This document shows positions 10,164 through 42,683 of a DNA stretch of 64,000 nt, in pieces. Each line of letters opens with the position of its first letter. The first letter of the stretch is position 1. Made by a program: the position numbers and the translations under genes. The notes below the pieces were generated by a model. It saw nothing but the letters and a program-made list of their open reading frames with translations. It had not been told where the DNA came from and did no database searches. The stretch is from an uncultured bacterium (lineage in GTDB: Bacteria; Abyssobacteria; SURF-5): positions 134,622-198,621 of the forward strand of contig CAZSKP010000003.1 of NCBI GenBank assembly GCA_964607485.1, read 5' to 3'.

Positions 10164-10212
10164 CCATTGTGCTGGCAACCGTGTTGATTGTCTGTACTTG
10201 TCGGAGAGACGC

Positions 10213-11097: not shown

Positions 11098-11135
11098 CAG
11101 GGGAATGCCGAGGGATATCCGTAGAGAGAACAGAT

Positions 11136-17055: not shown

Positions 17056-17212
17056 CCCACACCGGCGAGGCCATCGCCCGTGTTCTCAGAATGAGAGCAC
17101 ATTCGCCGCGTCTTTCCGAGCTCGGCTTCCGTTAAGAGATAGACCCGCCCAAAAAAGGCTTGTGACGGCGGCAACGAGCCACTGGCACAAGCCGGCGTTC
17201 GTCACGATGAAT

Positions 17213-17244
17213 TGGTCGGGGCGACTGGATTTGAACCAGCGACC
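17213..17244 (-). repeat. Duplicated 3' end of tRNA-Pro (att core)
   Basis: TGGTCGGGGCGACTGGATTTGAACCAGCGACC identical to 29207-29238. Confidence 0.93.
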
Positions 17245-18211
17245 AGCAAAGCGCAAACTATTGAAAATAAAGAGGGTTCTGAGCCCCGCCTGCCGGATGC
17301 TAACGAATATGCTAAAGTCTTCGTCGAGGCTCTCGCTGAGAGGCTTGCAGAAGCATGGAACAAGCTCTCCCCGGACATTCGGGATGCGGTAATCAATCTC
17401 CTTGATAAGGTTCTTCAACAGACATAATCGAAGAGGGTCGGAGAGGGTGGGTGGTGTACATCTTGGAAAGTGCAATTTCGGTCTCGATGTTGCACACTAT
17501 CTATCCGCTATCGTTAAAGGAACCTCTCTTAGCAGGGGTGGAGTGCGAATACTAATCCCGCCAGACCCTTTCTCTGATCCATTTTTCCCAAACCTGCCCC
17601 GCGAAACCTTTCAAGAAGGATGAAATTCATAAAGGCGTCGTATGGCGTGTGCATCGATAACAGGTTTTCGGACCCTCGTCAACTAGACAAGTTCGTGATG
17701 AAAGTGTTGACTGCTACTTTGACGGAAGTAAGTGTGGTTATGGGAGGGAAGCTGCACTTATAAATAGGCGCTTACGCTAAGTGATCCTGGCTTTAGCTTG
17801 TCAAGTGTGTAGGTCTGACCCCGTTACTTCCCCGGGAGAGAGAGCCATGACCTGAATGACATTATTCCATCTCCGAATGAGACCCCATAGGTTTCGCCTG
17901 CAAAAACAGTATATCATGGGCGACACCTATCCCATTCACTCTGCACGGGGTCTTTGCATCCTTTGCGGCATGATTTCTTGAAAGAACAAATCGGCTTTTG
18001 CGTCTGCGGTCAACAATCAAAACTTTGCTTCCCGGCATTTCTCTGCGACTTGGTGTCTTTGCGCGAGGCAATCTTCTTTTTTGATTGCGGCTTCGCCACG
18101 CTGCGCATCCACGAGCGCACGATTGCCTGTTTCCAATCCGAAATATTTTTTTCTTGACAGAGACCGCCGCTCTGGTATATGAGTATATGCGCGTAAAGGA
18201 GGGGATACGCT

Positions 18212-18826
18212 TTGTCGGATCAGACTGCCGCAACAATCGGAAAGAGGCTTATGCACGCCCGCGAGTCGATGCGGCTCACACTCCAGCAACTCTCCCGCCT
18301 ATCTGGTGTCGCCCCGAGCACCATTCAGAAAATTGAAGCGGGCACCATGATGCCGTCCGTCGCAGTCATGATGAAGATCGCGCGCGGGCTCCACAAGAAG
18401 ATAGGCTTTTTCCTTGACGAGGACGAATCGAGCGTCGAGGTTGCAGTGGTCCGCAAGCGCGACCGCACACGGGCGAGCATGCAGGAGAGCGGCTATTCGG
18501 TGCAAAGCCTTTCGGCGGAACTTCTCGATGCGGAGATAAACGGTTTTATCCTTGTTGTGCCGCCAGGCGGAAACAGCGGTGAGGAACCGCTCCACCATCG
18601 CGGCGACGAATTGGTGTATTGCGTACGCGGCAGAGTGACATTCACTGTGGGCGGTAAGGATTATGCAGTCGGCGCCGGGGACAGCTTGCATTTCAAGTCG
18701 GAACTCCCTCACTCGTGGAAGAATTCCGGCCGCTCGAATGCGGAGCTGGTCATTGTCTGTTCGCTGCCTGCGCTCGCAGAGAAATCGGTCTTTCGGCAAG
18801 GCGCAAGCTTGAGCCGAAGGAGGTGA
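18212..18826 (+). CDS. XRE-family HTH + cupin transcriptional regulator
   Basis: IGKRL..ARES..LTLQQLSRLSGVAPSTIQKIE; H.GDE...GDSLHFKSELPHSWKN; TTG start with GGAGG RBS. Confidence 0.9.
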   Translation: MSDQTAATIGKRLMHARESMRLTLQQLSRLSGVAPSTIQKIEAGTMMPSVAVMMKIARGLHKKIGFFLDEDESSVEVAVVRKRDRTRASMQESGYSVQSLSAELLDAEINGFILVVPPGGNSGEEPLHHRGDELVYCVRGRVTFTVGGKDYAVGAGDSLHFKSELPHSWKNSGRSNAELVIVCSLPALAEKSVFRQGASLSRRR

Positions 18827-18830
18827 CTGA

Positions 18831-20930
18831 ATGCCGTACTACGTCGGGACCGACATCGGCGGCACCTTCACGGATTGTGTGGTTCTTGATGAGACCGGAA
18901 ACATCGTCATAAGCAAGTCTCCGTCCACTCCTCCCGATTTCGCCCAGGGTCTCATGAATTCGCTTCTCGACGCGGCCGCCCAACTTGACCTGTCGGTTTC
19001 CGCTCTTCTCTCGCGGACGAAGCTCTTTTCCCACGGCTGCACCGTTGCCACAAATACGCTGATCAACCAATCCGGCGCAAAGGTGGGGGTCATAACGACA
19101 AGAGGCTTTGAAGAAACGCTTTATATCATGCGCGGTTCGGCCTATTGTCAGGGCCTCCTGGTCAGTGACTGGTATCACAAGCCACAGAATGAGCGGCCTT
19201 TCGAGATTGTTCCACTGTCGCGCATTGTTGGGATTACGGAACGCGTGGATAAAGCTGGTGATGTAATCGTGGCCATGAATGAGGACGAAGTCAGGAGGAC
19301 TGCCGAGTTTCTCATCAATGCGTGCGGCTGTGAAGCTATTGCGATTGCCTTTTTGTGGTCTTTTGTGAATCCGGCTCATGAGAGCCGGGCCAAAAATATA
19401 ATCGAGCGGGAGTTTCCCAACGTCTGTGTAAACACCAGCGCCGAGGTGGTAGCGCTGATAGGAGAATATGAGCGGTTCAGCACGGCGGTACTGAATTGCT
19501 ATCTGCGTCCTGAGGTCGATACATACGTTCACGACCTGAAAGCCCGCCTCTCCGAGAGAGAACTGGCGGCGTCATTTCTTATCATGCAGGCGCATGGCGG
19601 TTTGGCGCCGTGGGAATCGGCGGCCGGGCGCGCGGTGGCTATGCTGCAGTCGGGACCGACGGGCGGGGTCATAGCGGGTAAAGCTATCGGCTCGCTCATC
19701 AGGAAAGAGAACATTATCACCGCCGACATGGGCGGCACCTCATTCGACATCAGCCTGATTGCAGAAAGCAAACTTCGCTACACGACCAAATCTTATCATT
19801 CGCGACACGTGGTGGCGGCGCCGATGGTGGATATCGAATCCATAGGCGCGGGCGGCGGCAGCATCGCCTATGTTGATCGGAACGTCTGCAAGGTAGGCCC
19901 GCAGAGTGCAGGCGCCGATCCCGGCCCGGTTTGCTACTCGAGGGGCGGAAGCAGGCCCACTGTCACAGACGCGAACCTGGTCCTGGGTTATCTGAACCCG
20001 GAATTCTTCCTTGGCGGTAAAATGAAACTTGACACCGAGGCCGCCCGTAATGCGATCAAACGCGACGTCGCCGATCCGCTCGGCCTGACTGTGACTGAGG
20101 CCGCCTACGGCATTCATCGAATCGTCAATGCGCACATGTCCGATGCCGTCCGTTTCCATGTGCTTCACCGAGGGTATGACCCGCGCGATTTTCACCTGCT
20201 CCTGTTCGGCGGCGCCACACCGGTTCATGCCGCGGACATTGGCGAAGACCTCGAAGTCAGGTCCATCATTATTCCACTTGCAGGAATAGCGACTGTTCTT
20301 TCGGCATTCGGCATTGTCAATACGGATGTAGTGCGTACATACTCCGCCTCTCTGTCACTCCCGCTCGAACCGGATAGCATGGAAAGACTTGAGGAGCAAT
20401 ATCGGCTGCTCGAGGAACAGGGGCTTGCGGAGCTTGAGGCGGACGGATTCGAGAGGCCGAACATCGTGCTCGAACGAAGAGCAAACATCCGTTATCACCT
20501 CCAGCTTACCGAGGTCGACATTGAGCTTTCGCGAGACCCGCTTGGTGGAGATGCAGCGATAGATATCACTGAACGGTTTGACAAGCGCTACGCCGACCTG
20601 TATGGCGAAAACGCCGGATTCAAGGAGGCAGGACGCGATATCATCAGCCAGTTTGTCCGCGCCATGGCGAAAACGCCGAAAGTGAAACTCAAGAAGGCGG
20701 AGCAAAATCATTCCGGCCTTGAGTCGGCACGAAAAGGCACTCGAAACGTCTGCTTTGACGGAACGAACTTCGTGGCTGCGGATACATACGATGGTGATCT
20801 TCTGCCCGCTTACGGACAGGTATCCGGCCCAGCCGTCCTGGAAATGGCCGGAACTACCGTGCTGATTCCACCCACCTACAGAGCCGAAATGGATGCGTAT
20901 CGCAACATCTTCTTGAGGAAGAGAGGCTGA
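18831..20930 (+). CDS. Hydantoinase/oxoprolinase A (ATP-binding subunit; acetone carboxylase beta-like)
   Basis: GTDIGGTFTD, SGPTGG, DMGGTSFD, IGAGGGS, GPQSAGADPGP, TVTDAN. Confidence 0.93.
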   Translation: MPYYVGTDIGGTFTDCVVLDETGNIVISKSPSTPPDFAQGLMNSLLDAAAQLDLSVSALLSRTKLFSHGCTVATNTLINQSGAKVGVITTRGFEETLYIMRGSAYCQGLLVSDWYHKPQNERPFEIVPLSRIVGITERVDKAGDVIVAMNEDEVRRTAEFLINACGCEAIAIAFLWSFVNPAHESRAKNIIEREFPNVCVNTSAEVVALIGEYERFSTAVLNCYLRPEVDTYVHDLKARLSERELAASFLIMQAHGGLAPWESAAGRAVAMLQSGPTGGVIAGKAIGSLIRKENIITADMGGTSFDISLIAESKLRYTTKSYHSRHVVAAPMVDIESIGAGGGSIAYVDRNVCKVGPQSAGADPGPVCYSRGGSRPTVTDANLVLGYLNPEFFLGGKMKLDTEAARNAIKRDVADPLGLTVTEAAYGIHRIVNAHMSDAVRFHVLHRGYDPRDFHLLLFGGATPVHAADIGEDLEVRSIIIPLAGIATVLSAFGIVNTDVVRTYSASLSLPLEPDSMERLEEQYRLLEEQGLAELEADGFERPNIVLERRANIRYHLQLTEVDIELSRDPLGGDAAIDITERFDKRYADLYGENAGFKEAGRDIISQFVRAMAKTPKVKLKKAEQNHSGLESARKGTRNVCFDGTNFVAADTYDGDLLPAYGQVSGPAVLEMAGTTVLIPPTYRAEMDAYRNIFLRKRG

Positions 20931-20931
20931 G

Positions 20932-23289
20932 ATGGCGCCAAAACTCAAGGAATTTGGGCGGCCCCATCCGAATCTGCCGAAGCCGCATGCGCTGCGGGCG
21001 CCGTTCACAGTGCCTGAACCGCCGGTCGAGGTGGACCCGATCACCTACGAAATCATAAAGCACCGCATCTGGTATGCCGGCCTTTCGCTCGGTGAAACGC
21101 TCAAGAAAGTATCGGGCACCATTGTCACGGCGGAGGCCAATGACATGAGTTCCTACATAACCTTGGAGGACGGCGCACCGGTCTTCATCGGGCCTTACGT
21201 CATCTTTCATTCGGGCAATTCCGACCTCATCATTTCGAATGTCATAAGGCTCAATAAGGAAGACCCCGGGATATATGACGGCGACATGTTTTTTGTGAAC
21301 GACCCCTGGCTCGGACCGGCGCATCAGCCGGATTGCGCGATCGTTGCACCAATATTCCTTGACGACAAGCTTTTCTGCTGGACCGGCCTCACGGTACACC
21401 AACTCGATCTTGGCGGCGTCGATCCCGGCGGCCTGTGCCCGAATGCTCGCAATGTCTATGCCGAGCCGACGCTGTTCCCGGCCGTCAAGATCGTCGAGCG
21501 CGGGAAATTTCGAACCGATTTCGACCGCCTGCTCCGAAGGAACTCGCGAATGCCCGGCATCGTGGCCCTGGATATCAGGTCGATGATTGCCGGCAACAAC
21601 GCCTGCCGACGGGATATCCTGAAGCTGGTTGCCCAATACGGCAAGGAAGCAGTCAAATCGGTAATGATCATGATGATCAGGAAGACCTCGGAAAAATTTA
21701 AAGAACGGCTGCGGGAGTTGCCTCGCGGGACGTTTCGATGCCGCGACTGGAACGAGATTGGTGGAGCCGCCCCCGAACTGCAGGACGAGGTCTACCAGAT
21801 GGAGTGCACGCTCACGAACACGGGCGAAAAATTGATATTCGACTTCTCCGGAACCTCTGTCCAGTGCACCGGCTTCGCCAATTGCGGAGTGGGCGGCATG
21901 CGGAGCGGCGTCATATCCGGGTTCGCGGAGCCGGTGGCTTTTGATATCCCTTGGAATGCGGGAATCCTGGAGAACGTGGAAATCATTTCACAGGAAGGCA
22001 CCATCAACAATCCCAAATATCCCGCTGCGCTCTCCGACGGGATAACTGAAGGCGCTATCGTGACGGCGGCCGCTTCGGCCGGCGCTGTTATGAGGATGGT
22101 GCTCGGCCACCGGGAACTTCGCGACAAGACGCTCATCAACAGCGGCGCGGCTTTCCTTGGCAACACGCTTGGAGGCATGAACGAGAAGGGAGAGTTCTGG
22201 GGCACCTTGCTAATGGATGTCATCGGAATGTGTTCCATGCCGACGGGTGTTCGCGACGGTAGGGACATCACGGGCTCGGGCGGGATACCGTACACACAGT
22301 TTTCCAATGTCGAAACGAATGAATTGCATTATCCGATGCTCTACTTGTACCGAAGGCTTGGAAAAGACGCCTGGGGCCATGGATACCACCGCGGCGGGCG
22401 CTCGATCGAGCTTGCGTTCAAGCCGCACAAGACGGGAGCAATATACATGCTCCTGTGGAACCACGGCGCTGAATTCTCAAACAGCGTGGGTCTCTCCGGC
22501 GGCCTGGGAGCCAGCGCTGTCCGGTTCAAGGTGGCCCGGAATACCGACATCGAAGAAAGATTCCTGGCAGGCTCCCTGCCTGTGAGCATCGATGAATTTC
22601 CAACGCAGGCGCTAAAGGCCAAAAGTGAAAACCTGCTCGGTTGCGATGACTTGATCTATTTCGGAGTGCCCGGTGGAGGCGGATACGGCGACCCGTTGAA
22701 GCGCGAACCCGAACGAGTCCTCGCCAATATCAAGGAAGGGATACTCACCGCTCAGGATGCACTCAAGTTTTATGGGGTTGTCGTCAAAGGGGAAGAGCCG
22801 GAAGTCGATCTTGAGGCCACCCAGGCGGAGCGGGCGCGAATACGGAAGGCGCGACTTGCTTACGGCCGATATCTCGATGAATGGGATGAGTTGACGCCTC
22901 GGGAGAACGCATCGCCGGTTTCCCCGAGACCTGTGCGCCAGAAATGCACGCCGGCAGATCCCGTTCGAGATTTGATTGCAGTGGGAATGGGATTAAAAAT
23001 CGTTCGCGACGGCGCAAGCAGGCACTGGTGGGCGTGCTCCGATTGCGGGCACGTGTACTGTGCGGCCGAGGACAATCCGAAGCATGCGGCGCTCATGCAG
23101 GTAGGATATCTTTCCCAGATTTCTCACCCGACCGCAGAGATGGCCAGGCGCGACCCCCCGCGCTTCTTTCTCCGACAATTCTATTGCCCTGTTTGCGCTC
23201 TTACGTTTGCAAACGAGATGGCGCGCGCGGACGACCCGGTACTCGATGATATTGATTACGACCCTGCCTGGCTGGCGGCACAAGAATGA
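20932..23289 (+). CDS. Hydantoinase B/oxoprolinase subunit with C-terminal acetone-carboxylase-gamma-like Zn domain
   Basis: VDPITYEII, NDPWLGPAHQPD, HQLDLGG, GGGGYGDP; C-terminal CSDCGH...RQFYCPVC. Confidence 0.9.
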   Translation: MAPKLKEFGRPHPNLPKPHALRAPFTVPEPPVEVDPITYEIIKHRIWYAGLSLGETLKKVSGTIVTAEANDMSSYITLEDGAPVFIGPYVIFHSGNSDLIISNVIRLNKEDPGIYDGDMFFVNDPWLGPAHQPDCAIVAPIFLDDKLFCWTGLTVHQLDLGGVDPGGLCPNARNVYAEPTLFPAVKIVERGKFRTDFDRLLRRNSRMPGIVALDIRSMIAGNNACRRDILKLVAQYGKEAVKSVMIMMIRKTSEKFKERLRELPRGTFRCRDWNEIGGAAPELQDEVYQMECTLTNTGEKLIFDFSGTSVQCTGFANCGVGGMRSGVISGFAEPVAFDIPWNAGILENVEIISQEGTINNPKYPAALSDGITEGAIVTAAASAGAVMRMVLGHRELRDKTLINSGAAFLGNTLGGMNEKGEFWGTLLMDVIGMCSMPTGVRDGRDITGSGGIPYTQFSNVETNELHYPMLYLYRRLGKDAWGHGYHRGGRSIELAFKPHKTGAIYMLLWNHGAEFSNSVGLSGGLGASAVRFKVARNTDIEERFLAGSLPVSIDEFPTQALKAKSENLLGCDDLIYFGVPGGGGYGDPLKREPERVLANIKEGILTAQDALKFYGVVVKGEEPEVDLEATQAERARIRKARLAYGRYLDEWDELTPRENASPVSPRPVRQKCTPADPVRDLIAVGMGLKIVRDGASRHWWACSDCGHVYCAAEDNPKHAALMQVGYLSQISHPTAEMARRDPPRFFLRQFYCPVCALTFANEMARADDPVLDDIDYDPAWLAAQE

Positions 23290-23311
23290 CTATCGAAGGG
23301 AGGGGCGAGCC

Positions 23312-24820
23312 ATGAATCTCATGAGGGATTTCGCGAACTGGGTCGAGCGCAGACCGGAGGCGCCCGCGCTCATCCATGAAGACAGGGTCTATTCCTACGG
23401 CGAACTCATGCAGCTTATCGACAAATGTGGGCTGGCCATGAAGAAGTTGGGAGTGGGACCCGGCGAACGGGTGGCGCTCATGATGAACAATCGGCCCGAA
23501 TTCGTAGTGGCCTATCAGGCGACGGTAAAGATTGGGGCAATTATCGTTCCGATCAACACATTTCTCAAGGAGGCTGAACTGCTGCATCAGGTGAATGATG
23601 TCGGCGCCAGAGTCTTTATCGGAAACGATTGGGCCGCCGCGCCAGTGAGCGGCATCAAAGACAAACTCGAAACCGTCGAACAAATCATCCTCACCGGAGT
23701 TGAAGGGTACGCGGATTTTCAGGATTTCATCGGGTCTGAGCGAGGCGTACTTGAGATGTACGATGCACATGATGACGACGTGGCCGTGATCAAATATACC
23801 GCCGGCACCACCGGCAGACCAAAGGGCGTGATGCAGACGCACGGCAGTATCTATCGCTTCATGCGCGACACCATGAACATTCGCTCCATCGAGTCTGAGC
23901 ATTGTATTCTCCTGTTCGTTCCGATGTTTCATGGGTTTGGGGACCATTGCTGCATGAATCCGGTCCTCATGTGCGGCGCCAGCTTTGTGATCATGGACCC
24001 TTTTCATCCGGATGAGATTTTTCAGGCGATTCAAGGTTACAAATGTAGATATTTCGGCTGCACCCCTTCGATGTTGTATGGCCTCATGCATTCCGCCGAT
24101 GCCGAGAAATATGACCTCTCCAGTCTTGATCAGGTTTTGACGGGAGGCGGACCGGTAACGCGTGATATCGCCGAGGGCTTCGAGCGGAAGTTCGGCATAA
24201 AAGTACTGCAGGGCTATGGCCTCTCCGAAGGGACGGCGGGGTACACCTATACCAGGCTGGACATGCCGTTCAAAGAAGGTTCATGCGGAATTCCACTGCC
24301 CGGCGTTGAATTGAAGATTGTGGACGAGCAGGGCGCTGAAGTTCCCGTTGGCCAACCCGGCGAGGTCGTGGCAAGAAGCAGCTACAACATGAAAGGATAC
24401 TGGAATAATCCGGGAGAGACCGAAAAGACGATCAGGAACGAGTGGCTGCACACCGGCGACGTCGGCCGCCTGGATGAAGAAGGCTACCTGTATGTGATGG
24501 ATCGCAAGAAAGACATGATCATCATGAGCGGCGAGAATATCTATCCGGTCGAGATCGAGGAGATCCTTCTGCAACATCCCGCCGTGGCTCAAGCCGCCGT
24601 AATCGGTGCGCCGGAACCCAGGCGAGGCGAAGTTCCATGCGCGGTCGTGGTGCTCCATCCGGGCGCAAGCCTGACGGAACATGAACTGATCGAGTTCTGC
24701 AAGCCGAAGATGGCCTCTTTCAAGGTTCCGCGCATGGTCAAGTTCCGAGACAGCATGCCTTTGAGCGCGCAGTTCAAGGTCCTAAAGAGAGAGCTTCGAA
24801 GCGAGTACTTCGGCTCTTGA
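23312..24820 (+). CDS. AMP-forming acyl-CoA ligase
   Basis: YTAGTTGRPKG, QGYGLSE, TGD, DRKKDMII.SGENIYP.EIE. Confidence 0.93.
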   Translation: MNLMRDFANWVERRPEAPALIHEDRVYSYGELMQLIDKCGLAMKKLGVGPGERVALMMNNRPEFVVAYQATVKIGAIIVPINTFLKEAELLHQVNDVGARVFIGNDWAAAPVSGIKDKLETVEQIILTGVEGYADFQDFIGSERGVLEMYDAHDDDVAVIKYTAGTTGRPKGVMQTHGSIYRFMRDTMNIRSIESEHCILLFVPMFHGFGDHCCMNPVLMCGASFVIMDPFHPDEIFQAIQGYKCRYFGCTPSMLYGLMHSADAEKYDLSSLDQVLTGGGPVTRDIAEGFERKFGIKVLQGYGLSEGTAGYTYTRLDMPFKEGSCGIPLPGVELKIVDEQGAEVPVGQPGEVVARSSYNMKGYWNNPGETEKTIRNEWLHTGDVGRLDEEGYLYVMDRKKDMIIMSGENIYPVEIEEILLQHPAVAQAAVIGAPEPRRGEVPCAVVVLHPGASLTEHELIEFCKPKMASFKVPRMVKFRDSMPLSAQFKVLKRELRSEYFGS

Positions 24821-24835
24821 GGAGGTGGATTCACG

Positions 24836-26494
24836 ATGGAACAGAATGAACGAAGAATCGCCGAGGAAAAAGAGAGATGGGAGCGCGAGCAGAAAATACA
24901 TGATATTCCGCCGTTGAATACCGACACAATGGGGTACGAACATAAGGTGGTTTACACTCCCGCCGATGTCGATCCTTCTTCCTATCTCGGACAGGTGGGT
25001 TTCCCGGGCGAATTTCCGTACACTCGCGGCGTGTATCCCGCCATGTACCGAAAGGCACTCATGCGATTTCCCCAGTACTCGGGATTCGGCACGCCGGAGG
25101 ATACGAACAACCGCTGGAAATACCTCATCAGTCACGGGCAGATGACGGTGAACCTTGCTTTTGATCTTCCGACTCACATCGGTCACGATTCGGACGATCC
25201 GGAGATCGAGGACGAAGTGGGCAGGGTCGGCGTAGCTATCGATTCGCTGCGCGATTTCGAGGTGCTTTTTGATGGAATCCCGCTCGTGCCCGCCTTTTTC
25301 AATACGATGGGGCCGGCATCGATCCTGCTGGCTATGTACATCGCGATGGGAGAGAAGAAGGATATTCCTCCTTCCAGTGTAATGGGCGCTTTCACCAACG
25401 ACCCGATTGCCGTATGCGCATGCAGGGGAAACTGGGTCTTTCCGATCAAACCCAGCCTGCGGCTCGTCACCGACATGATCGAGTATTGCTGCAAGAACAT
25501 GCCCCGTTTTTATCCCATGAACATCCAGGGCGTCTTTTATCGTGCTGTTGGAGGTTCGATCCCGCAGGAGGTCGGTTACACCTATGCGGCGGCGCTCACG
25601 TATATTAACAGCGCATTGGAAAGAGGACTCAGCATAGACGACTTCGCTCCACGTCTGAGTTTTTTCATTTCGTGCGGGCCGGAGTTTTTGGCCGAATGCG
25701 CCAAATTCAGGGCTGCGCGCCGCCTATGGGCAAGACTGATGCGGGACCGATATGATGCAAAAGACAAGAACTCGCTCCGCGCCCGCATGACCAGCGCGAC
25801 CGGCGGTTCCTATTTTCAGGCAATAGAGCCGCTGAACAACCTGATGCGCGGCGCGTATGCGATATTGGGAGCGGCGCTCGGCGGCGCGCAGGCATTGTTC
25901 ATTGCCGGATATGACGAGGCCTATGCGATTCCCACAGAGGAGACGGCGCGTCTCGGCCTGCGAACGACCCAAATATTGGCGGAAGAAACCGATGTCTGCC
26001 GCACGGTAGACCCGCTTGCAGGCTCCTACTATATCGAGGACCTCACTAACTTCATCGAAAAGGAAGCCGAGCGGTATCTCAAGGATATCGAAGAACATGG
26101 CGGCGCAGCGGAGGCAGTCGATTCGGGTTACATGCGTCGCGAGCTCGACCGTGTTTTCAAGACGCAGCACGAGAAACGTCTTTGCGGAGAAATACCTATA
26201 GTGGGCGTCACCAAACATAAACACGAAGGCGAGCAGGAAAAGGAAATCGAAATTCATCAGCCCAGCCCCGAGGCTCTGCGCCTGCAAATTGAACGGCTCA
26301 AACAGGTGAAGGCTGAGCGCGACGCCGCCGAGGTGAAAAGACGGCTTCAGCGCGTGAGAACGGCCGCGAAAGGCGAGGAAAATCTGATCCCGATTTTCAT
26401 TGACGCGGTCAAGGCGTATTGCACGCTGGGCGAAATCATGGGAGTGCTCAAGGAAGAATTCGGGGAATTCAAAGAGCCGAGATACAGCGCCTGA
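24836..26494 (+). CDS. B12-dependent acyl-CoA mutase, substrate-binding large subunit (divergent)
   Basis: [46 protein letters not shown]. Confidence 0.92.
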   Translation: MEQNERRIAEEKERWEREQKIHDIPPLNTDTMGYEHKVVYTPADVDPSSYLGQVGFPGEFPYTRGVYPAMYRKALMRFPQYSGFGTPEDTNNRWKYLISHGQMTVNLAFDLPTHIGHDSDDPEIEDEVGRVGVAIDSLRDFEVLFDGIPLVPAFFNTMGPASILLAMYIAMGEKKDIPPSSVMGAFTNDPIAVCACRGNWVFPIKPSLRLVTDMIEYCCKNMPRFYPMNIQGVFYRAVGGSIPQEVGYTYAAALTYINSALERGLSIDDFAPRLSFFISCGPEFLAECAKFRAARRLWARLMRDRYDAKDKNSLRARMTSATGGSYFQAIEPLNNLMRGAYAILGAALGGAQALFIAGYDEAYAIPTEETARLGLRTTQILAEETDVCRTVDPLAGSYYIEDLTNFIEKEAERYLKDIEEHGGAAEAVDSGYMRRELDRVFKTQHEKRLCGEIPIVGVTKHKHEGEQEKEIEIHQPSPEALRLQIERLKQVKAERDAAEVKRRLQRVRTAAKGEENLIPIFIDAVKAYCTLGEIMGVLKEEFGEFKEPRYSA

Positions 26495-26520
26495 ATCGGA
26501 AGCGAGTATGGAGGTCTGAG

Positions 26521-26919
26521 ATGGAAAGGAAATTGAGAGTTCTGGTAGCCAAGCCTGGCCTGGACGGGCACGACATGGGCGCCAGACTCATATGCCAGAT
26601 TCTGCGGGACGCAGGTGTCGAGGTGATATACACCGGCCTCAGACAAAGCGTCGACGCTATTGTCACTTCGGCGATACAGGAGGATGTGGACGTCGTTGGC
26701 CTGAGCATCCTTTCGGGAGCGCACCTGGGGCTGACTCGCAAAATCATCAGTGGACTCAATGCCGCCAAGGCCGGAGACAAGGCTGTTATCGTTGGAGGGC
26801 TCATTCTCAAGGGAGACGAGGCCAAACTCAAAGAGATGGGCGTCAAAGCGGTATTTCCCTCGGCGACGCCGTATGACGAAATCAGGAAATATTTTCAAAA
26901 CTACAGGACATCAGATTAA
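26521..26919 (+). CDS. Cobalamin-binding small subunit of acyl-CoA mutase
   Basis: AKPGLDGHDMG (DxHxxG), GLSILSGAH, GG. Confidence 0.93.
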   Translation: MERKLRVLVAKPGLDGHDMGARLICQILRDAGVEVIYTGLRQSVDAIVTSAIQEDVDVVGLSILSGAHLGLTRKIISGLNAAKAGDKAVIVGGLILKGDEAKLKEMGVKAVFPSATPYDEIRKYFQNYRTSD

Positions 26920-26974
26920 GGACCATTCGGCTGAACGACATAAACAAACCGGGAGACGCCGAAAGGAGAGGGCC

Positions 26975-28126
26975 ATGAACTTTGAAATACCCGAAGAGAC
27001 GAGACAATTGCGGGACGCGTTGCGGCGATTTATCGAAAAGGAAATCAGGCCGCTCGACGAGCAAGTCAGAGAGCAAGATGACATACCTCTCGACCTTATT
27101 ACCGAGGCCAGACGGCGAGGCGTCGCTGCAGGTTTCTACGGCATGTTCATGCCGGAGGAGGTCGGCGGCGGCGGGCTCTCGATCCTTCCGACGACGCTTG
27201 TTTTCGAAGACATTGCCATGCAGGGCTCGCGAATGGCTCGTTTTGCGCTCGGGGCGCATGGTGGCCCCACACCGATCCTGCTAGCGTGCAACGAAGAGCA
27301 GCGCGAGCGTTTCCTCATGCCGGTGATGCGGGGCGAGAAGACCAACTGCTTTGCTTTGACCGAGCCGGGCGCCGGTTCCGACGCCGCGGCCATTCAGACC
27401 ACCGCCGTGAAAGACGGCGACAAGTACGTGATCAATGGAGTCAAGCACTTCATTACCAACGGCCCGTATGCAGACTTTGCGATGGTGTACGCGATCACGG
27501 ATAAAGAACTCGGCGCGCGCGGAGGAGTGACATGTTTTCTCGTTGAAAAAGGGACGCCCGGTTTTTCCGTTGCGCGCGTTCAAGAGACGATGGCAGGCGA
27601 CAACCTGCAGGCCGAACTCGCGTTTGAGGATTGTGTGGTTCCCGAAAAGAATATCCTGGGTGAACCTGGACAGGGATTCCTGCTGGCAATGCGGTGGATC
27701 GGACATGGGCGGCTTCTTATCGGCGCCATGTGTGTCGGAGTGTCGGAACTGCTGCTCAGAATGTCAACCGATTATGCAAAGCAGCGCGAGCAGTTCGGAA
27801 AGCCGATCTCGAGCAAACAGGCGATACAGTGGATGCTCTCGGATTCGGCAACTGAAATATATGCGGGCCGGATGATGCTGTACAATGCGGCGTGGAAAGC
27901 CGATCAGGGCGAGAACATCATCAAGGAAACCTCAATGGTCAAGCTGTATGCGACCGAGATGGTAAATCGGATAGCCGATCGCGCGCTCCAGATTCACGGC
28001 GGCATGGGCTACATGCGCGAGTTTCCCATTGAGCGCATCTTCCGAGAGGTGCGCGTGCTCCGTATCGTCGAGGGCACTTCCGAAATCCAGCGGTTCATCA
28101 TTTCGAGGTTCCTGCTGAACGGATGA
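26975..28126 (+). CDS. Acyl-CoA dehydrogenase
   Basis: FALTEPGAGSD, NGVKHFITN, REQFGKPI, QIHGGMGY, RIVEGTSE. Confidence 0.94.
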   Translation: MNFEIPEETRQLRDALRRFIEKEIRPLDEQVREQDDIPLDLITEARRRGVAAGFYGMFMPEEVGGGGLSILPTTLVFEDIAMQGSRMARFALGAHGGPTPILLACNEEQRERFLMPVMRGEKTNCFALTEPGAGSDAAAIQTTAVKDGDKYVINGVKHFITNGPYADFAMVYAITDKELGARGGVTCFLVEKGTPGFSVARVQETMAGDNLQAELAFEDCVVPEKNILGEPGQGFLLAMRWIGHGRLLIGAMCVGVSELLLRMSTDYAKQREQFGKPISSKQAIQWMLSDSATEIYAGRMMLYNAAWKADQGENIIKETSMVKLYATEMVNRIADRALQIHGGMGYMREFPIERIFREVRVLRIVEGTSEIQRFIISRFLLNG

Positions 28127-28220
28127 TTTGAGCGGCCGTCAGGGAAAGCAGGGAACGCGTCGCCGCCGCGGGAGGGCACAACGTGCTCATGTGACCGTCT
28201 CCGGTAACTGGAGACCTTTG

Positions 28221-28376
28221 ATGCGCAGTTCTATCAGAAGAAAAAAACTGTTGGCATTGATCGCGGTCGTTATCATAATATCAATGCTCTTGCTGTTTCT
28301 GGCTGGATATATCTTAGGACCTGATAGAATATGGTATCCTGCCCCCAGGTTCCAAACTTCTAATCCAGAAAAATAG
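28221..28376 (+). CDS. Possible small single-TM protein
   Basis: MRSSIRRKKLLALIAVVIIISMLLLFLAGYILG; GGAG upstream; AT-richer than flanks. Confidence 0.35.
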   Translation: MRSSIRRKKLLALIAVVIIISMLLLFLAGYILGPDRIWYPAPRFQTSNPEK

Positions 28377-28401
28377 AGCAAGAATGGAGGGTTAAACCCT
28401 A

Positions 28402-28500
28402 TATAACATTCTCTTGATAGTCCCGCCCGGCTCGGGCAAGACGATGCTGACTAAACGTCTTGCGACCACCCTTCCCGACATGAACTCCAACAACACCTGA
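28402..28500 (+). pseudogene. comM: comM/yifB (Mg-chelatase-like ATPase) Walker A fragment
   Basis: Translates YNILLIVPPGSGKTMLTKRLATTLPDM, matching the ComM pattern HN.L..GPPGSGKTMLA.RL..ILP. Confidence 0.7.
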
Positions 28501-28547
28501 AAGATTTTCTGGACCACCTGAAGGACCGTGGAGTCGGTTCAAGGTAC

Positions 28548-29162
28548 TTGCTGGCGTGTTCCAGCAAGCTGACCCTCGCCTTCGAACACATGGGAGCTGT
28601 GTGTTTGGCAGACCTGTCAAGCGACAGGGCAGAAAAATTCCTGCTCTGGCTCGTTGAGAAGAAGAAGGCCTGGCGGGTGCTTCAGGGCAAGAGATTGGGA
28701 AGAGAGGTAAGCCTTGCAGAGCCGGTGTTCAACATGTCCCGGCATATACTCGAGCACTTCCGGAGGGACTGCCTCGCAGCAAGCATCCCGCTCAAAGACG
28801 ATTCGGGACGCATTGTGGACTTCCATTGCCTGCGTCACACCACCGCCAGCCTTCTGAGCAGAGCAAAGGTTGCGCCGCGAGCCGCGCAGGCGCGTCTGCG
28901 CCATTCCGACATCAGGCAGACCATGAAGACGTACACCCACCCGGAACTAGTCGACAGGACAGCGGCAGCGGAGACCTTTCCTGTTTTCACTATGGATAGA
29001 GAAGTTGAGAATGACGAAGTGAAACTTTCGCTAACATGTTTACTAACATATATGCTAAAGAAATCTGGCTCTGCGGGGCCGGAAAAGGCGGAGCCTGACA
29101 GAGAGAGACAGGCAAGGCCCTTTAGAAGAAGACCCGCAAATCCCTACAAAAAAGGCTTGTGA
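28548..29162 (+). pseudogene. Truncated tyrosine recombinase/integrase (C-terminal catalytic part)
   Basis: GRIVDFHCLRHT...AQARLRHSDIRQTMKTYTH (HxxR, H, Y); N-terminal domains and the first catalytic Arg region not recognisable. Confidence 0.85.
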
Positions 29163-29206
29163 CAGCGGCAACAAGCCACTTGCACAAGCCGGCATTCCTC
29201 ATATGT

Positions 29207-29282
29207 TGGTCGGGGCGACTGGATTTGAACCAGCGACCTCACGGTCCCGAACCGTGCGCGCTACCCCCTGCGCTACGCCCCG
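29207..29282 (-). tRNA. tRNA-Pro (anticodon CGG)
   Basis: CGGGGCG...CACGG-TTCGGGA-CCGTG...GCTGGTTCAAATCCAGT-CGCCCCG-ACCA cloverleaf, 76 nt, encoded CCA. Confidence 0.96.
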
Positions 29283-29310
29283 GCGTTTCAATTTCCCGCC
29301 TGCGTGTGCT

Positions 29311-29339
29311 ATTATAGCAACCGTGCGCCTGTTCGTCAA
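29311..29339 (-). promoter_or_regulatory. sigma70 promoter of tRNA-Pro
   Basis: TTGACG-N17-TATAAT on the minus strand. Confidence 0.7.
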
Positions 29340-29431
29340 CCGCGTAGCGACTGGCTCGTCCGTGCCGTCGCTCCGGCGGTAATCGGACGAAAACCTTCAA
29401 CGAAGCGCCGTCTCGGAAGCTGCGGTGACAG

Positions 29432-30127
29432 ATGAAAGCGTGCGCGATCATTCCGTGCTACAACGTCGGCGACCTGTGCGTGCCCGTGATAGAGCAGACG
29501 CGGAATTTCGTGGAGGGTATCATCGCCGTCGATGACGGCTCGACCGACGACACTCCCGCCCATCTGGCAAAAACGGGCGCGACGGTGCTCACTCACGAGC
29601 AAAACGCCGGCAAAGGCGCGGCGCTGCTGACGGCGTTTCGGCATTTTCTCGACAGCCCGGAGTGGAAGGACTACGACTCCGTTCTCACCATCGACGGCGA
29701 CGGTCAGCATAATCCGCAGGAGATCCGTCGCCTGCTCGACGCTTATGCCGCCGACCCCGGCTGCGTTGTGGTGGGCACGCGCGAGGTTGACCGGCCCGAC
29801 ATCAAGTTCCGCCGCCGCCTGGGCAACATCATCAGCCGCTACTTCATCTCGAAGGCGTGCGGTCAATACATCCCCGACACGCAGTCGGGCTTCAGGGTGT
29901 TCTCGCGGGAGGTGCTGCGCAAAATCATGCCCCGCCTTAGGCCCGGCCGCTACGAAATGGAGACGGCCTTTCTGATTCTCGCGGCCCGCTCGGGCCACCG
30001 GATAGCGCCGGTCAGCATCAGCACCATCTACACCGACGAGGCGGAGCGCGTCTCCTCGTTCGACCCCTACCTCGACACTTACCTCGTCTTCAAAGTCGTC
30101 GCCAAGAGCATCCTCTTCGGGAAATAG
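29432..30127 (+). CDS. Glycosyltransferase family 2 (DPM1-like)
   Basis: IIPCYN, VDDGSTD, NAGKGAA, DGDGQH, DTQSGFR. Confidence 0.92.
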   Translation: MKACAIIPCYNVGDLCVPVIEQTRNFVEGIIAVDDGSTDDTPAHLAKTGATVLTHEQNAGKGAALLTAFRHFLDSPEWKDYDSVLTIDGDGQHNPQEIRRLLDAYAADPGCVVVGTREVDRPDIKFRRRLGNIISRYFISKACGQYIPDTQSGFRVFSREVLRKIMPRLRPGRYEMETAFLILAARSGHRIAPVSISTIYTDEAERVSSFDPYLDTYLVFKVVAKSILFGK

Positions 30128-30362: not shown

Positions 30363-31418
30363 CTAAAGCTCTTCCTTGTACTTCCTGTAGAGGCCGCGGA
30401 ACTGATGATATGTGAGCCCAAGAACGCGCGCGGCTTTCTTCTGGTTGAACTTGGCGTCTTTGAGGGCTGTCCGCAAAAAATCCAGTTCCAGTTCGTGAAC
30501 GACATCGGCCAATGGTTTGTCGATTCGCTTCCTTGGTGATGAACCGCCTTCGGACACCGTCGCTTTCTTCTCTCCTGCTCCTTCGGGGACAGTCTTTTCC
30601 CTGTACGGCGAGCGGAAAGGATCGAAGTCAATATCGGTGACCAGCGGCGAATCGGAACGATAGACGGCGCGCTCGACGACGTTTTTCAGTTCGCGTACAT
30701 TCCCCGGCCAGGAGTAGCCTTCGAGCGCATCCATGGCCTCGTCGCTGAATTCGGGAACCTCCTCGCGTCCCATCTCATATGACATCCGGGCCGCGAAATG
30801 GTTCGCGAGCAGCATGATGTCCTCCCTGCGCTCTCGCAACGGCGGCAGAAAGAGCACCTCGAATGATAGCCGGTCAAGCAGGTCGCGCTTGAATTTGCCC
30901 TCGGCCATCAGGGTCGGCAGGTCCGCGTTCGTGGCCCCGATAATCCGCACGTCCACTCGTATCGGCTGCGAGCTGCCCACCTGCTCAAAGGTTCCGTATT
31001 CCACCACGCGCAGTATCTTTTCCTGCACCTCTATCGGGATGATTCCAATTTCATCGAGAAACAAGGTGCCGCCGTCGGCGGTCTCGAATCTGCCTTTCCG
31101 ACGTCTCGTTGCGCCGGTGAATGCCCCCTCCTCATGACCGAACAATTCAGACTCGATGAGCGTCGGCGCGAGCGCCGCGCAGTTAAGCGCAACCAGCGGC
31201 CCCTGCCACCGGCCGGAGAGGTAGTGCAGCTTTGAAACGGCCAGTTCCTTGCCCGTTCCCCGCTCCCCTATGAGAAGCACGGGTCGGTCAACCTGGGCAA
31301 CGCGGGACAGGCGCTCCTTAAATTCGAGGAATATCTCCGACCGCCCCAGTGCCTCTCCCACAGGCACATGCTGACCCGGAGCGGGCTTCTCTTCACCAGT
31401 TTTCCTTGCGCCATTCAT
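30363..31418 (-). CDS. pspF: Phage shock protein operon activator (sigma54 EBP)
   Basis: GERGTGKE, GAFTGA, LFLDE, WPGNVREL, C-terminal HTH YHQFRGL; no N-terminal sensor; divergent from pspA. Confidence 0.93.
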   Translation of the reverse strand: MNGARKTGEEKPAPGQHVPVGEALGRSEIFLEFKERLSRVAQVDRPVLLIGERGTGKELAVSKLHYLSGRWQGPLVALNCAALAPTLIESELFGHEEGAFTGATRRRKGRFETADGGTLFLDEIGIIPIEVQEKILRVVEYGTFEQVGSSQPIRVDVRIIGATNADLPTLMAEGKFKRDLLDRLSFEVLFLPPLRERREDIMLLANHFAARMSYEMGREEVPEFSDEAMDALEGYSWPGNVRELKNVVERAVYRSDSPLVTDIDFDPFRSPYREKTVPEGAGEKKATVSEGGSSPRKRIDKPLADVVHELELDFLRTALKDAKFNQKKAARVLGLTYHQFRGLYRKYKEEL

Positions 31419-31473
31419 GGTATTATTTCCTAAATAATAGTCTATTCTACTACTATTTGCTAAATTATACCAT
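31419..31473. promoter_or_regulatory. Candidate PspF upstream activator sites
   Basis: AT-rich imperfect inverted pair TGGTATTATTTCCTAA / TTGCTAAATTATACCA, 70-120 bp upstream of the -24/-12 site. Confidence 0.5.
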
Positions 31474-31538
31474 AATGATTTTTCTTTGTCAAGTCCATAA
31501 GCTATTTAAGAAAAAGAGCTTACATATCCCCGCCGATT

Positions 31539-31555
31539 TTGGCATGCCTTGTGCT
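31539..31555 (+). promoter_or_regulatory. sigma54 promoter of pspA
   Basis: TTGGCATGCCTTGTGCT, GG-N10-GC. Confidence 0.8.
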
Positions 31556-31594
31556 TAATAGCCCGCCAAGGATGAACGAAACGGAGGAGACATC

Positions 31595-32272
31595 ATGGGA
31601 ATATTCACGAGGTTTCGAGATATCATAAGCTCCAACATCAACGCGATGCTGGACAAGGCGGAGGACCCGGAGAAGCTCATCAGGCTCATGATTCAGGAGA
31701 TGGAGGATACGCTCGTCGAAATCAGGGCCTCATGCGCCGACGCCATGGCAACAAAAAAGAGGGTTCAGCGCGCACAGGAAGGAGCGCGAGCACGCGCAAA
31801 GGACTGGGGCGAGCGCGCGCAGCTCGCGGTTGACAAAGGCCGCGAAGACCTGGCCCGCGAGGCACTCATCGAGAGACGCAACTACCAGGAGCATGCAGAC
31901 GCCATGGAGGGTGAGCTGAAACAGTGCGATGCTCTCATCTATCAATACCAGGCAGATATCGTACAGCTCGAAAATAAGCTGCGTTCGGCTCGCGAGAAGC
32001 AGCGTGTTCTTGTCCAACGTCACCTGCATGCTCGCAACAAGAAACGGGCCCAGTTGGATATTCGCAAGGTCGAGACCTCAGACGCGTTCATCCGCTTCGA
32101 CCAGTTCGAGAACCGAATCGAGCGGATGGAGGCCGAGGCAGACCTCGTTAACTACGGCCGCAGGCCCACGTTGGAAGATGAGATCAACTCGCTCAGAACC
32201 GACGAAGAGATCGAGAACGAATTGCAGAACCTCAAAGCTTCTACGGAAAAGAAACCCGAGGAAAAGTCATAA
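31595..32272 (+). CDS. pspA: Phage shock protein A
   Basis: MGIFTRFRDIISSNINAMLDKAEDPEKLIRLMIQEMEDTLVE. Confidence 0.96.
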   Translation: MGIFTRFRDIISSNINAMLDKAEDPEKLIRLMIQEMEDTLVEIRASCADAMATKKRVQRAQEGARARAKDWGERAQLAVDKGREDLAREALIERRNYQEHADAMEGELKQCDALIYQYQADIVQLENKLRSAREKQRVLVQRHLHARNKKRAQLDIRKVETSDAFIRFDQFENRIERMEAEADLVNYGRRPTLEDEINSLRTDEEIENELQNLKASTEKKPEEKS

Positions 32273-41033: not shown

Positions 41034-42683
41034 TCAGAAGATCTTCGGCTCTTCCCATTTGCCGTAAACGTCGCGCAGCACGTCGCAGATCTCACCCTTC
41101 GTGGCGAGCGAGCGGGCGCACTCGACGATTCTCGGCATGACGTTGTCGGACCCTCGGGCGGCATCGGCGAGGGCCTCGAGGCTGCGCCTCACTTTGTCGT
41201 TGTCCCGCCTCTCGCGAAGGTCGCGCAGGTGTTCCCTCTGCTCCCGCTCCACGCTCGGGTCGATTTTCAGCAGGGGTATCTCGACCTTTTCGTGCTCAAG
41301 GACAAGGTCGTTCACGCCGATGACTATTCGTTCGTTCGTCTCGATTTCGCGCTGATAGCGCTTGGCCGCCTCGGCGATCTCTCTCTGGAAGAAGCCGAGC
41401 TCGATGGCCTTTATCACTCCGCCCAGCTTCTCTACCTGTTCGAAATATTCGTATGCGCCGCGCTCCATCTTGTCGGTCAACGCCTCGACGCAATACGAGC
41501 CCGCCAGCGGGTCGATCGTGTTGGACACGCCCGATTCGTGCGCGATGAGCTGCTGCGTGCGGAGCGCTATCCTGACGGCTTTCTCCGTCGGGAGCGCGTA
41601 GGTTTCGTCCATCGAGTTGGTGTGGAGCGATTGCGTGCCTCCCATCACCGCCGCGAGCGCCTGGTAGGCGGTGCGCACGATGTTATTCTCGGGCTGTTGC
41701 GCGGTGAGGCTGCAGCCGGCCGTCTGCGTGTGGAACCGGAGGAGCCACGAGCGCGGGTCTTTGGCCTTGTACCTGTCGCGCATCTCCCTCGCCCAGATGC
41801 GTCTGGCGGCGCGGTACTTCGCGATTTCCTCGAAGAAGTCGTTGTGCGCGTTGAAGAAGAACGACAGCCGTGGAGCAAACGCATCGACGTCGAGGCCCGC
41901 CTTGATGCCCGCCTCGACGTAGGCGAAGCCGTCGGCAAGCGTGAACGCCAGCTCCTGGAGCGCGGTCGAGCCGGCCTCGCGGATGTGGTAGCCGCTGATG
42001 CTTATCGTGTTCCACTTGGGAACGTGGTCGGAGGCGAACGCCATGATGTCGGTGATGATGCGCATCGAGGGCGCCGGCGGCACGAGCCACGACTTCTGTG
42101 CGATGTATTCCTTGAGGATATCGTTCTGTATCGTTCCCCTCAGTTTCTCCGACGGCACCCCCTGCCTTTCGCCCACGGCGATGTAGAAGGCGAACAGCAC
42201 GGCGGCCGGGCCGTTGATGGTCATCGAGGTCGAGATCCTGTCGAGCGGTATTTCGTCGAACAGCAGGCTCATGTCCTCGACCGAATCGATCGCGACGCCG
42301 CAGATGCCCACCTCGCCCTCGGAGAACGGGTGGTCGGAGTCGTAGCCCATGAGCGTCGGCATGTCGAAGGCGACCGACAGGCCGGTCTGGCCGTGGTCGA
42401 TGAGGAAATGAAACCTCTCGTTCGTGTCGCGCGCGCTGCCCAGGCCCGCGAACTGGCGCATCGTCCAGAGCTGGCCGCGGTACATCGTGGGATACACGCC
42501 GCGCGTGAACGGAAACTGGCCCGGGTAGCCGAGGTCGCCCTCGTAATCGAAATCGGTCAAGTCGTCGGGCGAGTAAAGAGGATTCACCGTCTCGCCGGAG
42601 GCGGTGGTGAAGGTGGAATCGCGCTTCTTCTCGCGCGCGTACTGCTTCTCCCACTTCGCGCGCCCGTCACGTTCTGTTGTCAT
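41034..42683 (-). CDS. icmA: Acyl-CoA mutase large subunit, isobutyryl-CoA mutase type
   Basis: WTMRQFAG (Phe) and KEYIAQK (Gln) at the two specificity positions; SGYHIREAG and QSLHTNS intact. Confidence 0.8.

Follow-up and report, generated by a model that had tools for sequence, protein, structure and literature searches.

An apparently functional B12-dependent carbon-skeleton mutase without the usual catalytic histidine, encoded in a putative island operon of an uncultured bacterium

Can a vitamin B12-dependent acyl-CoA mutase work without the histidine that is usual at its catalytic centre, and what substrate would such an enzyme accept? The question is raised by a gene in a 64,000-nucleotide stretch of contig CAZSKP010000003.1 from an uncultured bacterium of the SURF-5 lineage. 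This whole stretch is called the window below. The protein under study, MutL, is encoded as follows.

24836..26494 (+): MutL, acyl-CoA mutase large (substrate-binding) subunit, 552 aa, no internal stops

From its sequence, MutL is apparently a functional B12 carbon-skeleton mutase that lacks the usual catalytic histidine. The reading favoured here, which is judged fairly likely, is that MutL and its B12-binding small subunit MutS form a functional adenosylcobalamin (AdoCbl)-dependent acyl-CoA mutase of an uncharacterised specificity clade, which acts on bulky substituted succinyl-/malonyl-CoA and belongs to a catabolic operon carried on an island.

Fold and pocket residues of MutL

The family membership of MutL was analysed with profile models and a predicted structure. 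The Pfam model PF01642 covered the protein from profile position 5 to 512 of 512 (E 3e-162), and the NCBIfam model of the acyl-CoA mutase N-terminal domain, TIGR00641, gave 522 bits against a cut-off of 304. The AlphaFold2 model, built on a 33-row clade alignment, had a predicted template modelling score (pTM) of 0.81 and a mean predicted local distance difference score (pLDDT) of 75.7. The Foldseek comparison of this model gave template modelling (TM) scores of 0.91 to 2-hydroxyisobutyryl-CoA mutase (HCM, 4R3U) and 0.86-0.90 to methylmalonyl-CoA mutase (MCM).

The pocket residues were mapped by HMMER alignments to human MCM, M. tuberculosis MCM, P. shermanii MCM (1REQ chain A) and HCM 4R3U, and the P. 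shermanii numbers equal the 1REQ_A chain index plus 1. The MutL translation contains MRFPQYSG, GAFTND...CACRG, QGVFYRA, RMTSAT and QALFIAGYDEA. The alignment to 1REQ_A revealed three kept residues, namely Y81 for Tyr89, R197 for Arg207 and E361 for Glu370, the last of which lies in YDEA and pairs with the Glu of FDEA or LDEA in MCM. Eight residues were found to be replaced: T187 for Gln197, V233 for Tyr243, F234 for His244, A237 for Glu247, T319 for His328, A321 for Gln330, F355 for His364 and A357 for Asn366. The original prediction had read these motif changes, together with the retention of Tyr89, Arg207 and Glu370, from an alignment by eye, and the HMMER alignments to solved MCM structures bear it out.

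Tyr89 and Arg207 are taken here to be the carboxylate contacts of MCM, His244 to be the acid at the thioester carbonyl and Glu370 to lie at the adenosyl ribose. Structures of the MCM mutants Y89F (5REQ) and H244A (1E1C) exist in the PDB, and the titles of these entries fit the roles of carboxylate contact and catalytic acid. Like their relatives, MutL and MutS would exchange a hydrogen atom with the CoA-thioester carbonyl group on the adjacent carbon through radical chemistry; the Tyr/Arg pair of MutL would hold the substrate carboxylate and the Glu would hold the adenosyl ribose. Since the Tyr/Arg clamp does not vary in the clade, and since smaller or apolar residues surround the migrating group and the adenosine, the substrate pair is probably a 2-substituted succinyl-CoA and the matching malonyl-CoA with a bulky apolar aryl or alkyl group. 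In view of MCM structures and the operon context it is plausible, as the original prediction had it, that the Tyr/Arg pair still contacts a free carboxylate and that the replaced residues would accommodate a large apolar group.

Conservation of the altered pocket and family position

Relatives of MutL were collected with a word-indexed search. Among the best 120 of 8000, the MutL pattern was common to 37 full-length proteins (52-86% identity), which together with MutL give 38 clade members. Tyr81, Arg197 and Thr187 were each present in 38/38, Val233 in 97% and Phe355 in 95%, and His at position 234 occurred in 0/38, with a His one residue later in two proteins. These 38 were compared with 36 listed relatives that carry Tyr/Arg/Tyr/His at the four key positions, here called canonical mutases. 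The comparison revealed 140 conserved, identical positions and 19 fixed differences, among them T187, V233 and F355 as well as K73, N106, L107, H114, N156, T157, Y226, N229 and G358. The eight pocket positions conserved in MCM-like rows are replaced in MutL.

The strength of selection was estimated against the mutases of two related loci, L001 and L002. The proportion of nonsynonymous differences (pN) was 0.10 against a synonymous proportion (pS) of 0.81 for MutL and L001 (ratio about 0.12), and 0.18 against 0.75 for MutL and L002, with synonymous sites saturated in both pairs. As the pocket changes are fixed or nearly so in 38 proteins and are under purifying selection, the altered pocket is, as judged from these alignments, a clade trait and not the product of drift.

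The exhaustive search of 1.84 billion representatives found 19,262 proteins with E at or below 0.001. A motif table of the best 150 of these 19,262 representatives elucidated very many kinds of pocket residues among mutases, so a rebuilt pocket as such is not rare. The sister clades B and C likewise retain Tyr81 and Arg197, and a profile of the sister clades matched only proteins named from metagenome-assembled genomes (MAGs) or metagenomes. No clade member was found on plasmids among 428 mutase-bearing plasmid records, all of which had less than 47% identity.

The family position was analysed with a tree of 65 hand-picked rows (IQ-TREE quick mode, LG+G4, with branch support from the Shimodaira-Hasegawa-like approximate likelihood ratio test, SH-aLRT, only), in which three very divergent loci served as outgroup. 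The rows comprised 14 clade members, sister groups, representatives resembling MCM, isobutyryl-CoA mutase (ICM) and ethylmalonyl-CoA mutase (ECM), HcmA of M. petroleiphilum and a second mutase of the window; labels such as 'MCM-like' and 'ECM-like' were assigned from motifs and only HcmA came from a named record. The clade that contains MutL, clade A, was recovered as 15 rows with SH-aLRT 100. It was nested in a superclade of 28 of the 65 rows, all without His244, again with SH-aLRT 100, and both stood apart from the MCM-like, ICM/HCM-like (including HcmA and the second mutase) and ECM-like rows. Set beside the MCM, ECM, ICM and HCM types, as had been proposed with the original prediction, the clade thus falls separate and its pocket residues are replaced rather than conserved. 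The claim of a distinct specificity class is partly supported, in so far as the clade is conserved and separate in the tree and MutL fails to reach the MCM model described below; the rebuilt pocket is only one among many.

The relatives of MutL are named methylmalonyl-CoA mutase in public sources and Tyr89 and Arg207 are kept, which would suit an ordinary MCM with tolerated substitutions. The MCM equivalog model of NCBIfam, NF006944, was however not reached by MutL (436 bits, cut-off 876). The replacement of eight pocket positions that are conserved in the MCM-like rows, the separate clade in the tree and a gene context of hydantoinase-like proteins, CoA ligase and acyl-CoA dehydrogenase instead of propionate metabolism also stand against this explanation, which is scarcely credible.

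The second mutase had been offered as an internal control for the motifs of MutL.

41034..42683 (-): second mutase large subunit, resembling ICM and pivalyl-CoA mutase (PCM), TIGR00641 780 bits

With GTIQND, SGYHIRE, RFHTQT and QSLHTN retained, it can fairly serve to check the five rebuilt motifs. Positions 89 and 207 are, however, occupied by Phe (in WTMRQF) and Gln (in IAQKSW), and these two residues make it ICM/PCM-like and no control for a dicarboxylate enzyme of the MCM type. In the tree it paired with an ICM-like representative (SH-aLRT 97). No B12-binding, MeaB or adenosyltransferase gene was found beside it within the window, where it appears to be an orphan.

The operon, its relatives and the tRNA-Pro island

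The mutL gene lies in a run of seven genes on one strand with short gaps, in the order regulator, HydA, HydB, CoA ligase, MutL, MutS and acyl-CoA dehydrogenase (ACAD), and the reading frames of all seven are open. The six partners of mutL are listed below.

18212..18826 (+): transcription regulator with HTH_3 and cupin domains, PuuR-like architecture (Pfam Cupin_2 5e-18, HTH_3 1.5e-11)
18831..20930 (+): HydA, ATPase subunit of the hydantoinase A/oxoprolinase/ketone-carboxylase family (Pfam Hydantoinase_A 3.6e-87, N- and C-terminal domains)
20932..23289 (+): HydB with a C-terminal zinc-ribbon domain like acetone carboxylase gamma (Pfam Hydantoinase_B 1.5e-96; Acetone_carb_G 1.4e-9, residues 682-777)
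23312..24820 (+): AMP-forming acyl-CoA ligase (Pfam AMP-binding 1.1e-92, AMP-binding_C)
26521..26919 (+): MutS, B12-binding small subunit, 132 aa (Pfam B12-binding 2.7e-22; TIGR00640 123 bits, cut-off 57)
26975..28126 (+): ACAD, 383 aa, catalytic-base motif VEG (three Pfam ACAD domains)

The MutS motifs DxHxxG (LDGHDMG), SxL (LSILSG) and GG (VGG) were intact and were kept in 9/9 related loci that reach MutS; they presumably mark base-off/His-on B12 binding. The PDB matches of HydA were about equal for N-methylhydantoinase (4e-117), caprolactamase A (6e-117), acetophenone carboxylase gamma (5e-111) and acetone carboxylase beta (2e-100). For HydB the top PDB match was acetophenone carboxylase delta (1.6e-45), and residues 667-775 matched acetone carboxylase gamma; the CxxC...CxxC of this zinc domain was kept in the window and in 4/4 relatives (L002, L003, L009, L010). 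The search for HydB on the plasmid collection gave matches at 35% identity or less only. The ligase reading frame opens at 23207, and its translation indicated Met 23312 as the likely start with Met 23246 as the alternative. The ligase scored 474.9 bits with the NCBIfam model PRK06187 (cut-off 476), and the PDB neighbours of its orthologue in L002 were feruloyl-CoA synthetase and FadD13. The ACAD keeps the catalytic Glu and its C-terminal sequence is ...RVLRIVEGTSEIQ. Homologues of the regulator were found upstream of the clade mutases of L007 (66% identity) and L002 (38%).

NCBIfam assigned no specific name to the operon proteins, nor to the Amidohydro_2 protein found in related loci, and a Pfam scan of the window operon gave neither a CoA-transferase nor a molybdenum-enzyme domain. 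The literature search, which did not cover supplements, found no paper joining hydantoinase, methylmalonyl-CoA mutase, acyl-CoA dehydrogenase and CoA ligase, and none joining acyl-CoA mutase, hydantoinase and CoA ligase.

The genome scan seeded with the clade-A alignment returned 73 loci, 10 of which encode clade members (51-85% identity, all MAGs) and 63 more distant mutases. MutS follows the mutase in 9/10 clade loci, and in the tenth the contig ends. The ACAD was present in 8/10, with VEG in 6, TEG in 2 and GGG in none, and a crotonase in 6/10. The Amidohydro_2 (PF04909) protein was found in 7/10, and these proteins share 54-75% identity. HydB was present in 4/10 clade loci, which is 4/6 of those with at least 3.8 kb upstream, and HydA in 3; no HydAB genes lie near the mutase in the subclade L005-L007. 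The ligase of L001-L003 is similar to that of the window. The mutase-ACAD pair of L006 lies beside a biotin carboxylase and carboxyltransferases. One further shared neighbour was seen, a DUF3604 protein. In the window it is encoded at 47338-49353 (+), some 20 kb away from the operon, and in L003 at 9734-11377, 4 kb downstream of the clade mutase. With 35% identity over 78 aa between the window and L003, this sharing is probably a coincidence.

The following order of reactions is proposed for the operon. The ATP-dependent HydA/HydB would make an acid from a ketone by carboxylation, or from a lactam or imide by ring opening, and the CoA ligase would turn this acid into its CoA ester. The mutase would shift the thioester carbonyl to the neighbouring carbon, after which the ACAD would start beta-oxidation, which the crotonase would carry on in the relatives. 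In these relatives the crotonase and the Amidohydro_2 protein may also act as decarboxylase or hydratase, and either could remove the malonyl carboxylate. A precedent for malonyl decarboxylation is the methylmalonyl-CoA decarboxylase of the crotonase family that adjoins Sbm in E. coli. The roles of the partner enzymes and the direction of the reaction are what we infer from this gene set.

The same gene set could be that of a branched monocarboxylate. The substrate would then be a monocarboxylic branched acyl-CoA, such as 2-aryl- or 2-alkyl-propionyl-CoA, which is converted to the linear 3-substituted form, and the Tyr/Arg pair would bind another polar group or be structural. An acid-forming enzyme, a ligase, a mutase, an ACAD that keeps its Glu base and a crotonase suit such a route, in which no decarboxylation step is needed; the L006 surroundings, with biotin carboxylase and carboxyltransferases, are also as in branched-chain acyl-CoA routes. 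The invariance of Tyr81 and Arg197 in 38/38 clade members and their retention in the sister clades B and C argue against it. Monocarboxylate enzymes are altered at these positions, to non-basic residues that are apolar or acidic, as in the Phe/Gln of the second mutase; ICM presumably has the same Phe/Gln at 89/207 and HCM the Ile/Asp set. A monocarboxylic substrate is thus unlikely.

MutL and MutS could also be orthologues of IaaG and IaaH, the (2-aminophenyl)succinyl-CoA/(2-aminobenzyl)malonyl-CoA mutase that has been proposed for anaerobic indoleacetate degradation, in an operon that would be a trimmed iaa cluster, for example for an already oxidised lactam such as an oxindole acid. The iaa cluster reportedly (Ebenau-Jehle 2012) holds hydantoinase-like genes as well. 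The iaa operon, according to PMC8360864, joins a ligase, the mutase IaaGH and the acyl-CoA dehydrogenase IaaF, which are families also present here. Operons of this kind have been reported in sulfate reducers and an archaeon, and from environments like those of the clade MAGs. The same paper, PMC8360864, gives all IaaF orthologues with GGG in place of YEG, and all of them in iaa operons, whereas the window ACAD has VEG and the eight clade-locus ACADs have VEG or TEG. Further, Pfam scans of the window operon and of the scanned open reading frames (ORFs) of L001-L003 and L005-L010 gave neither IaaL, a family-III CoA transferase, nor a molybdenum hydroxylase. As neither a GGG ACAD nor IaaL-type or molybdenum genes are present, the operon was not filed under iaa, and this origin is held to be quite improbable. 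No Aromatoleum or Ferroglobus protein was named among the matches listed in the homologue searches, and none of the 73 scanned loci was from an iaa cluster.

L023, L029 and L033 were considered as iaa loci on account of HydA-like DNA 10 kb downstream and were rejected, as their mutase is very different and lies among BcrAD/HGD-D, MeaB and ETF genes. These three, with L041, L012 and L030, encode very divergent large subunits without Tyr89, Arg207 and His244 (for example DGYNLGE at 243-247), with MutS and MeaB present; L029 is from a Desulfonema limicola MAG. The surroundings of L023, L029 and L033 include BcrAD/BadFG ATPases, HGD-D dehydratase-like subunits, peptidase U32, FAD/CCG oxidoreductases, ETF and UbiD/UbiA. 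The L041 mutase lies beside two molybdenum hydroxylases, and L012 has two tandem MutL/MutS pairs. We know of no assigned function for the mutases of these six loci. Another group, in L013, L015, L016 and L019-L022 (Streptomyces, Archangium), has Leu at Tyr89 and keeps Arg207. Its 243-247 motif is SGGHARE and its 328-330 motif RxQVNTFG, and in the tree a long branch leads to it beside the ICM/HCM-like rows.

The operon is enclosed by two direct repeats, one copy of which lies inside a tRNA gene.

17150..17244 (strand not assigned): left direct repeat, a 55-nt stretch (17150-17204) and a 33-nt copy of the tRNA-Pro 3' end (17212-17244)
28455..29162 (+): tyrosine recombinase (integrase) remnant (Pfam Phage_integrase 5.8e-7, profile positions 127-168 of 172 only)
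29207-29282 (-): tRNA-Pro(CGG), from ARAGORN, overlapped by the right-hand direct repeat 29147-29238

The stretch 17212-17244 is 100% identical over 33 nt to 29206-29238, the tRNA-Pro 3' end, and 17150-17204 is 91% identical over 55 nt to 29147-29201; the spacing of the repeats is about 11,995 nt. Between them lie the seven operon genes and the integrase remnant, which adjoins tRNA-Pro. The stop-to-stop frame of the remnant is 235 aa at most, and only the C-terminal catalytic part is recognisable. The composition of the island was not distinct, with a GC fraction of 0.55-0.575 inside (18001-30000) and 0.50-0.65 elsewhere in the window. Judged by the repeats and the integrase, this stretch of about 12 kb is read as an element that integrated long ago at tRNA-Pro and whose integrase has apparently decayed since, with the operon as its acquired cargo.

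Beyond tRNA-Pro, outside the island, a GT2 glycosyltransferase ORF was seen at 29432-30127, followed within 30363-32272 by pspF (-), above the TIGR02974 cut-off, and pspA (+), above the TIGR02977 cut-off, an ordinary divergent phage-shock pair.

The integrase is a remnant, the Amidohydro_2 and crotonase genes seen in related clusters are absent from the island, and MutL has neither His244 nor Glu247. These points may suggest that MutL is decaying on a dead mobile element that carried it along, and that it is inactive since the loss of its catalytic histidine. The seven open frames and the low pN/pS ratio to L001 are contrary to such decay; the same replacements are moreover found in 38 proteins from several phyla, and the cofactor motifs are intact. 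Decay is accordingly very improbable.

The right end of the operon showed a different history from the mutase. The window ACAD is 83% identical to that of L006 (L006:8170-9315), whereas the mutases of the window and L006 share only 59%. The nearest relatives of the mutase are L001 (85%) and L002 (74%), in which a crotonase, a TEG-type ACAD and the Amidohydro_2 protein come after MutS. With an ACAD closest to L006 and a mutase closest to L001 and L002, the right end is, on sequence grounds, a mosaic that looks recombined or replaced beside the integrase remnant. A weak match (43% over 44 aa, E 7e-5) was also seen at 28060-28191 (-) of the window, overlapping the ACAD stop region, to the C-terminal part of a 536-aa protein that is convergent to the L007 cluster; it may be the remnant of a lost neighbour gene.

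Several observations weigh against a functional mutase for bulky dicarboxylyl-CoA esters in this operon. The Amidohydro_2 and crotonase genes of the relatives were not found in the window by tblastn (E 1e-3, whole 64 kb), so the pathway may be incomplete here or completed elsewhere in the genome, and the operon has no gene for a MeaB-type chaperone or adenosyltransferase. The QGVFFRG subclade (L005-L007) has neither His nor Tyr at 234/235, and no obvious substitute for His244 is seen. The gamma-like zinc domain of HydB points to a ketone carboxylase, and no convincing route from its product to a substituted succinyl-CoA was found. The MutL model has pLDDT below 50 at residues 55-80 and 351-393, the segments with MRFPQY and QALFIAGYDEA. 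These segments correspond to about 24998-25075 and 25886-26014 of the window, and the barrel itself is confident; the low values may come from the shallow 33-row alignment or from real mobility of the active-site lid.

A wider reading of the clade is offered tentatively and remains rather doubtful. Clade A and the His244-less superclade would be B12 mutases without the His244-Glu247 acid pair, serving bulky aryl- or alkyl-dicarboxylyl-CoAs in a mobile, undescribed pathway of ketone or lactam degradation that is widespread in uncultured anaerobes. The HydB-gamma fusion, the dedicated ligase, the VEG-type dehydrogenase and the conserved Amidohydro_2 protein would be its other members, and its hosts would be MAGs of Deltaproteobacteria, Dehalococcoidia, Myxococcales, Binatia and Actinomycetota.

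Significance and comparison with known systems

To our knowledge few specificities of acyl-CoA mutases are characterised, namely MCM, ICM/IcmF, HCM, ECM and PCM, and each addition to them has given access to a pathway or to a biocatalytic means of making branched or rearranged acids. The clade pocket keeps the carboxylate clamp and drops the catalytic histidine, and so bears on the importance of His244 in the radical rearrangement. The seven-gene operon is compact and could be expressed whole in order to identify the substrate, and the clade gives a concrete way into the great variety of uncharacterised mutase pockets in metagenomes. If the substrate is indeed an aryl- or alkyl-succinyl-CoA, the system would offer the first tractable example of a step that is merely postulated for the anaerobic breakdown of auxin and of alkanes.

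Among solved structures the top match of MutL is HcmAB (4R3U), both in sequence (E 2.3e-124) and in fold (the TM score given above). Both enzymes have a large subunit of about 550 aa and a separate small B12-binding subunit, and in M. petroleiphilum a CoA ligase lies in the same cluster. HCM differs in that it reads ...MRQIAG... and ...YMAQKEY..., which gives Ile/Gln at 89/207, and keeps SGYH; it is a monocarboxylate enzyme with His244. The HCM cluster also has MeaB and an adenosyltransferase, which the window operon lacks, and HcmA lies elsewhere in the tree. MCM (P. shermanii 1REQ, human 2XIJ) has the same fold, and its Tyr89, Arg207 and Glu370 are kept in MutL. It differs in the eight pocket residues and in its fused subunits, as MutL and MutS are separate.

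The nearest operon logic is that of IaaGH from Aromatoleum aromaticum, where, according to PMC8360864, a ligase, a mutase and an ACAD act on an aryl-substituted dicarboxylyl-CoA. IaaGH is there named phenylsuccinyl-/benzylmalonyl-CoA mutase as a proposal only, and benzylmalonyl-CoA is made with a Ccr variant (PMC8360864). The window system differs in the VEG of its ACAD against the GGG of IaaF and in having no IaaL-type transferase or molybdenum enzyme; it is set apart by gene content and not by the sequence of IaaG.

Alkane degraders offer a further comparison. The proteins P0084, P0086, P0382 and P0423 form a neighbouring clade with CGYHMRE and RVFSGCLA that includes proteins of Desulfosarcina sp. 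BuS5 and of the alkane degrader Desulfothermus naphthae. This clade keeps Tyr243, His244 and Glu247 (in CGYHMRE), changes the 328-330 motif and lies outside the His244-less superclade, in which it differs from MutL. Desulfosarcina sp. BuS5 is a degrader of gaseous alkanes (PMC4402382). Going by the organism names alone, the clade may represent the ass-linked alkylsuccinyl-CoA mutase. PMC13685792 describes a mutase beside ass/mas genes as the candidate alkylsuccinyl-CoA mutase, accompanied by a carboxyl transferase and an enoyl-CoA hydratase. No ass genes lie near MutL, in which it differs from this candidate. The likeness is that both are split enzymes with a proposed conversion of a bulky substituted succinyl-CoA to a malonyl-CoA (for the alkane enzyme, PMC13685792), and that the clade-A locus L006 likewise has carboxyl transferases beside its mutase.

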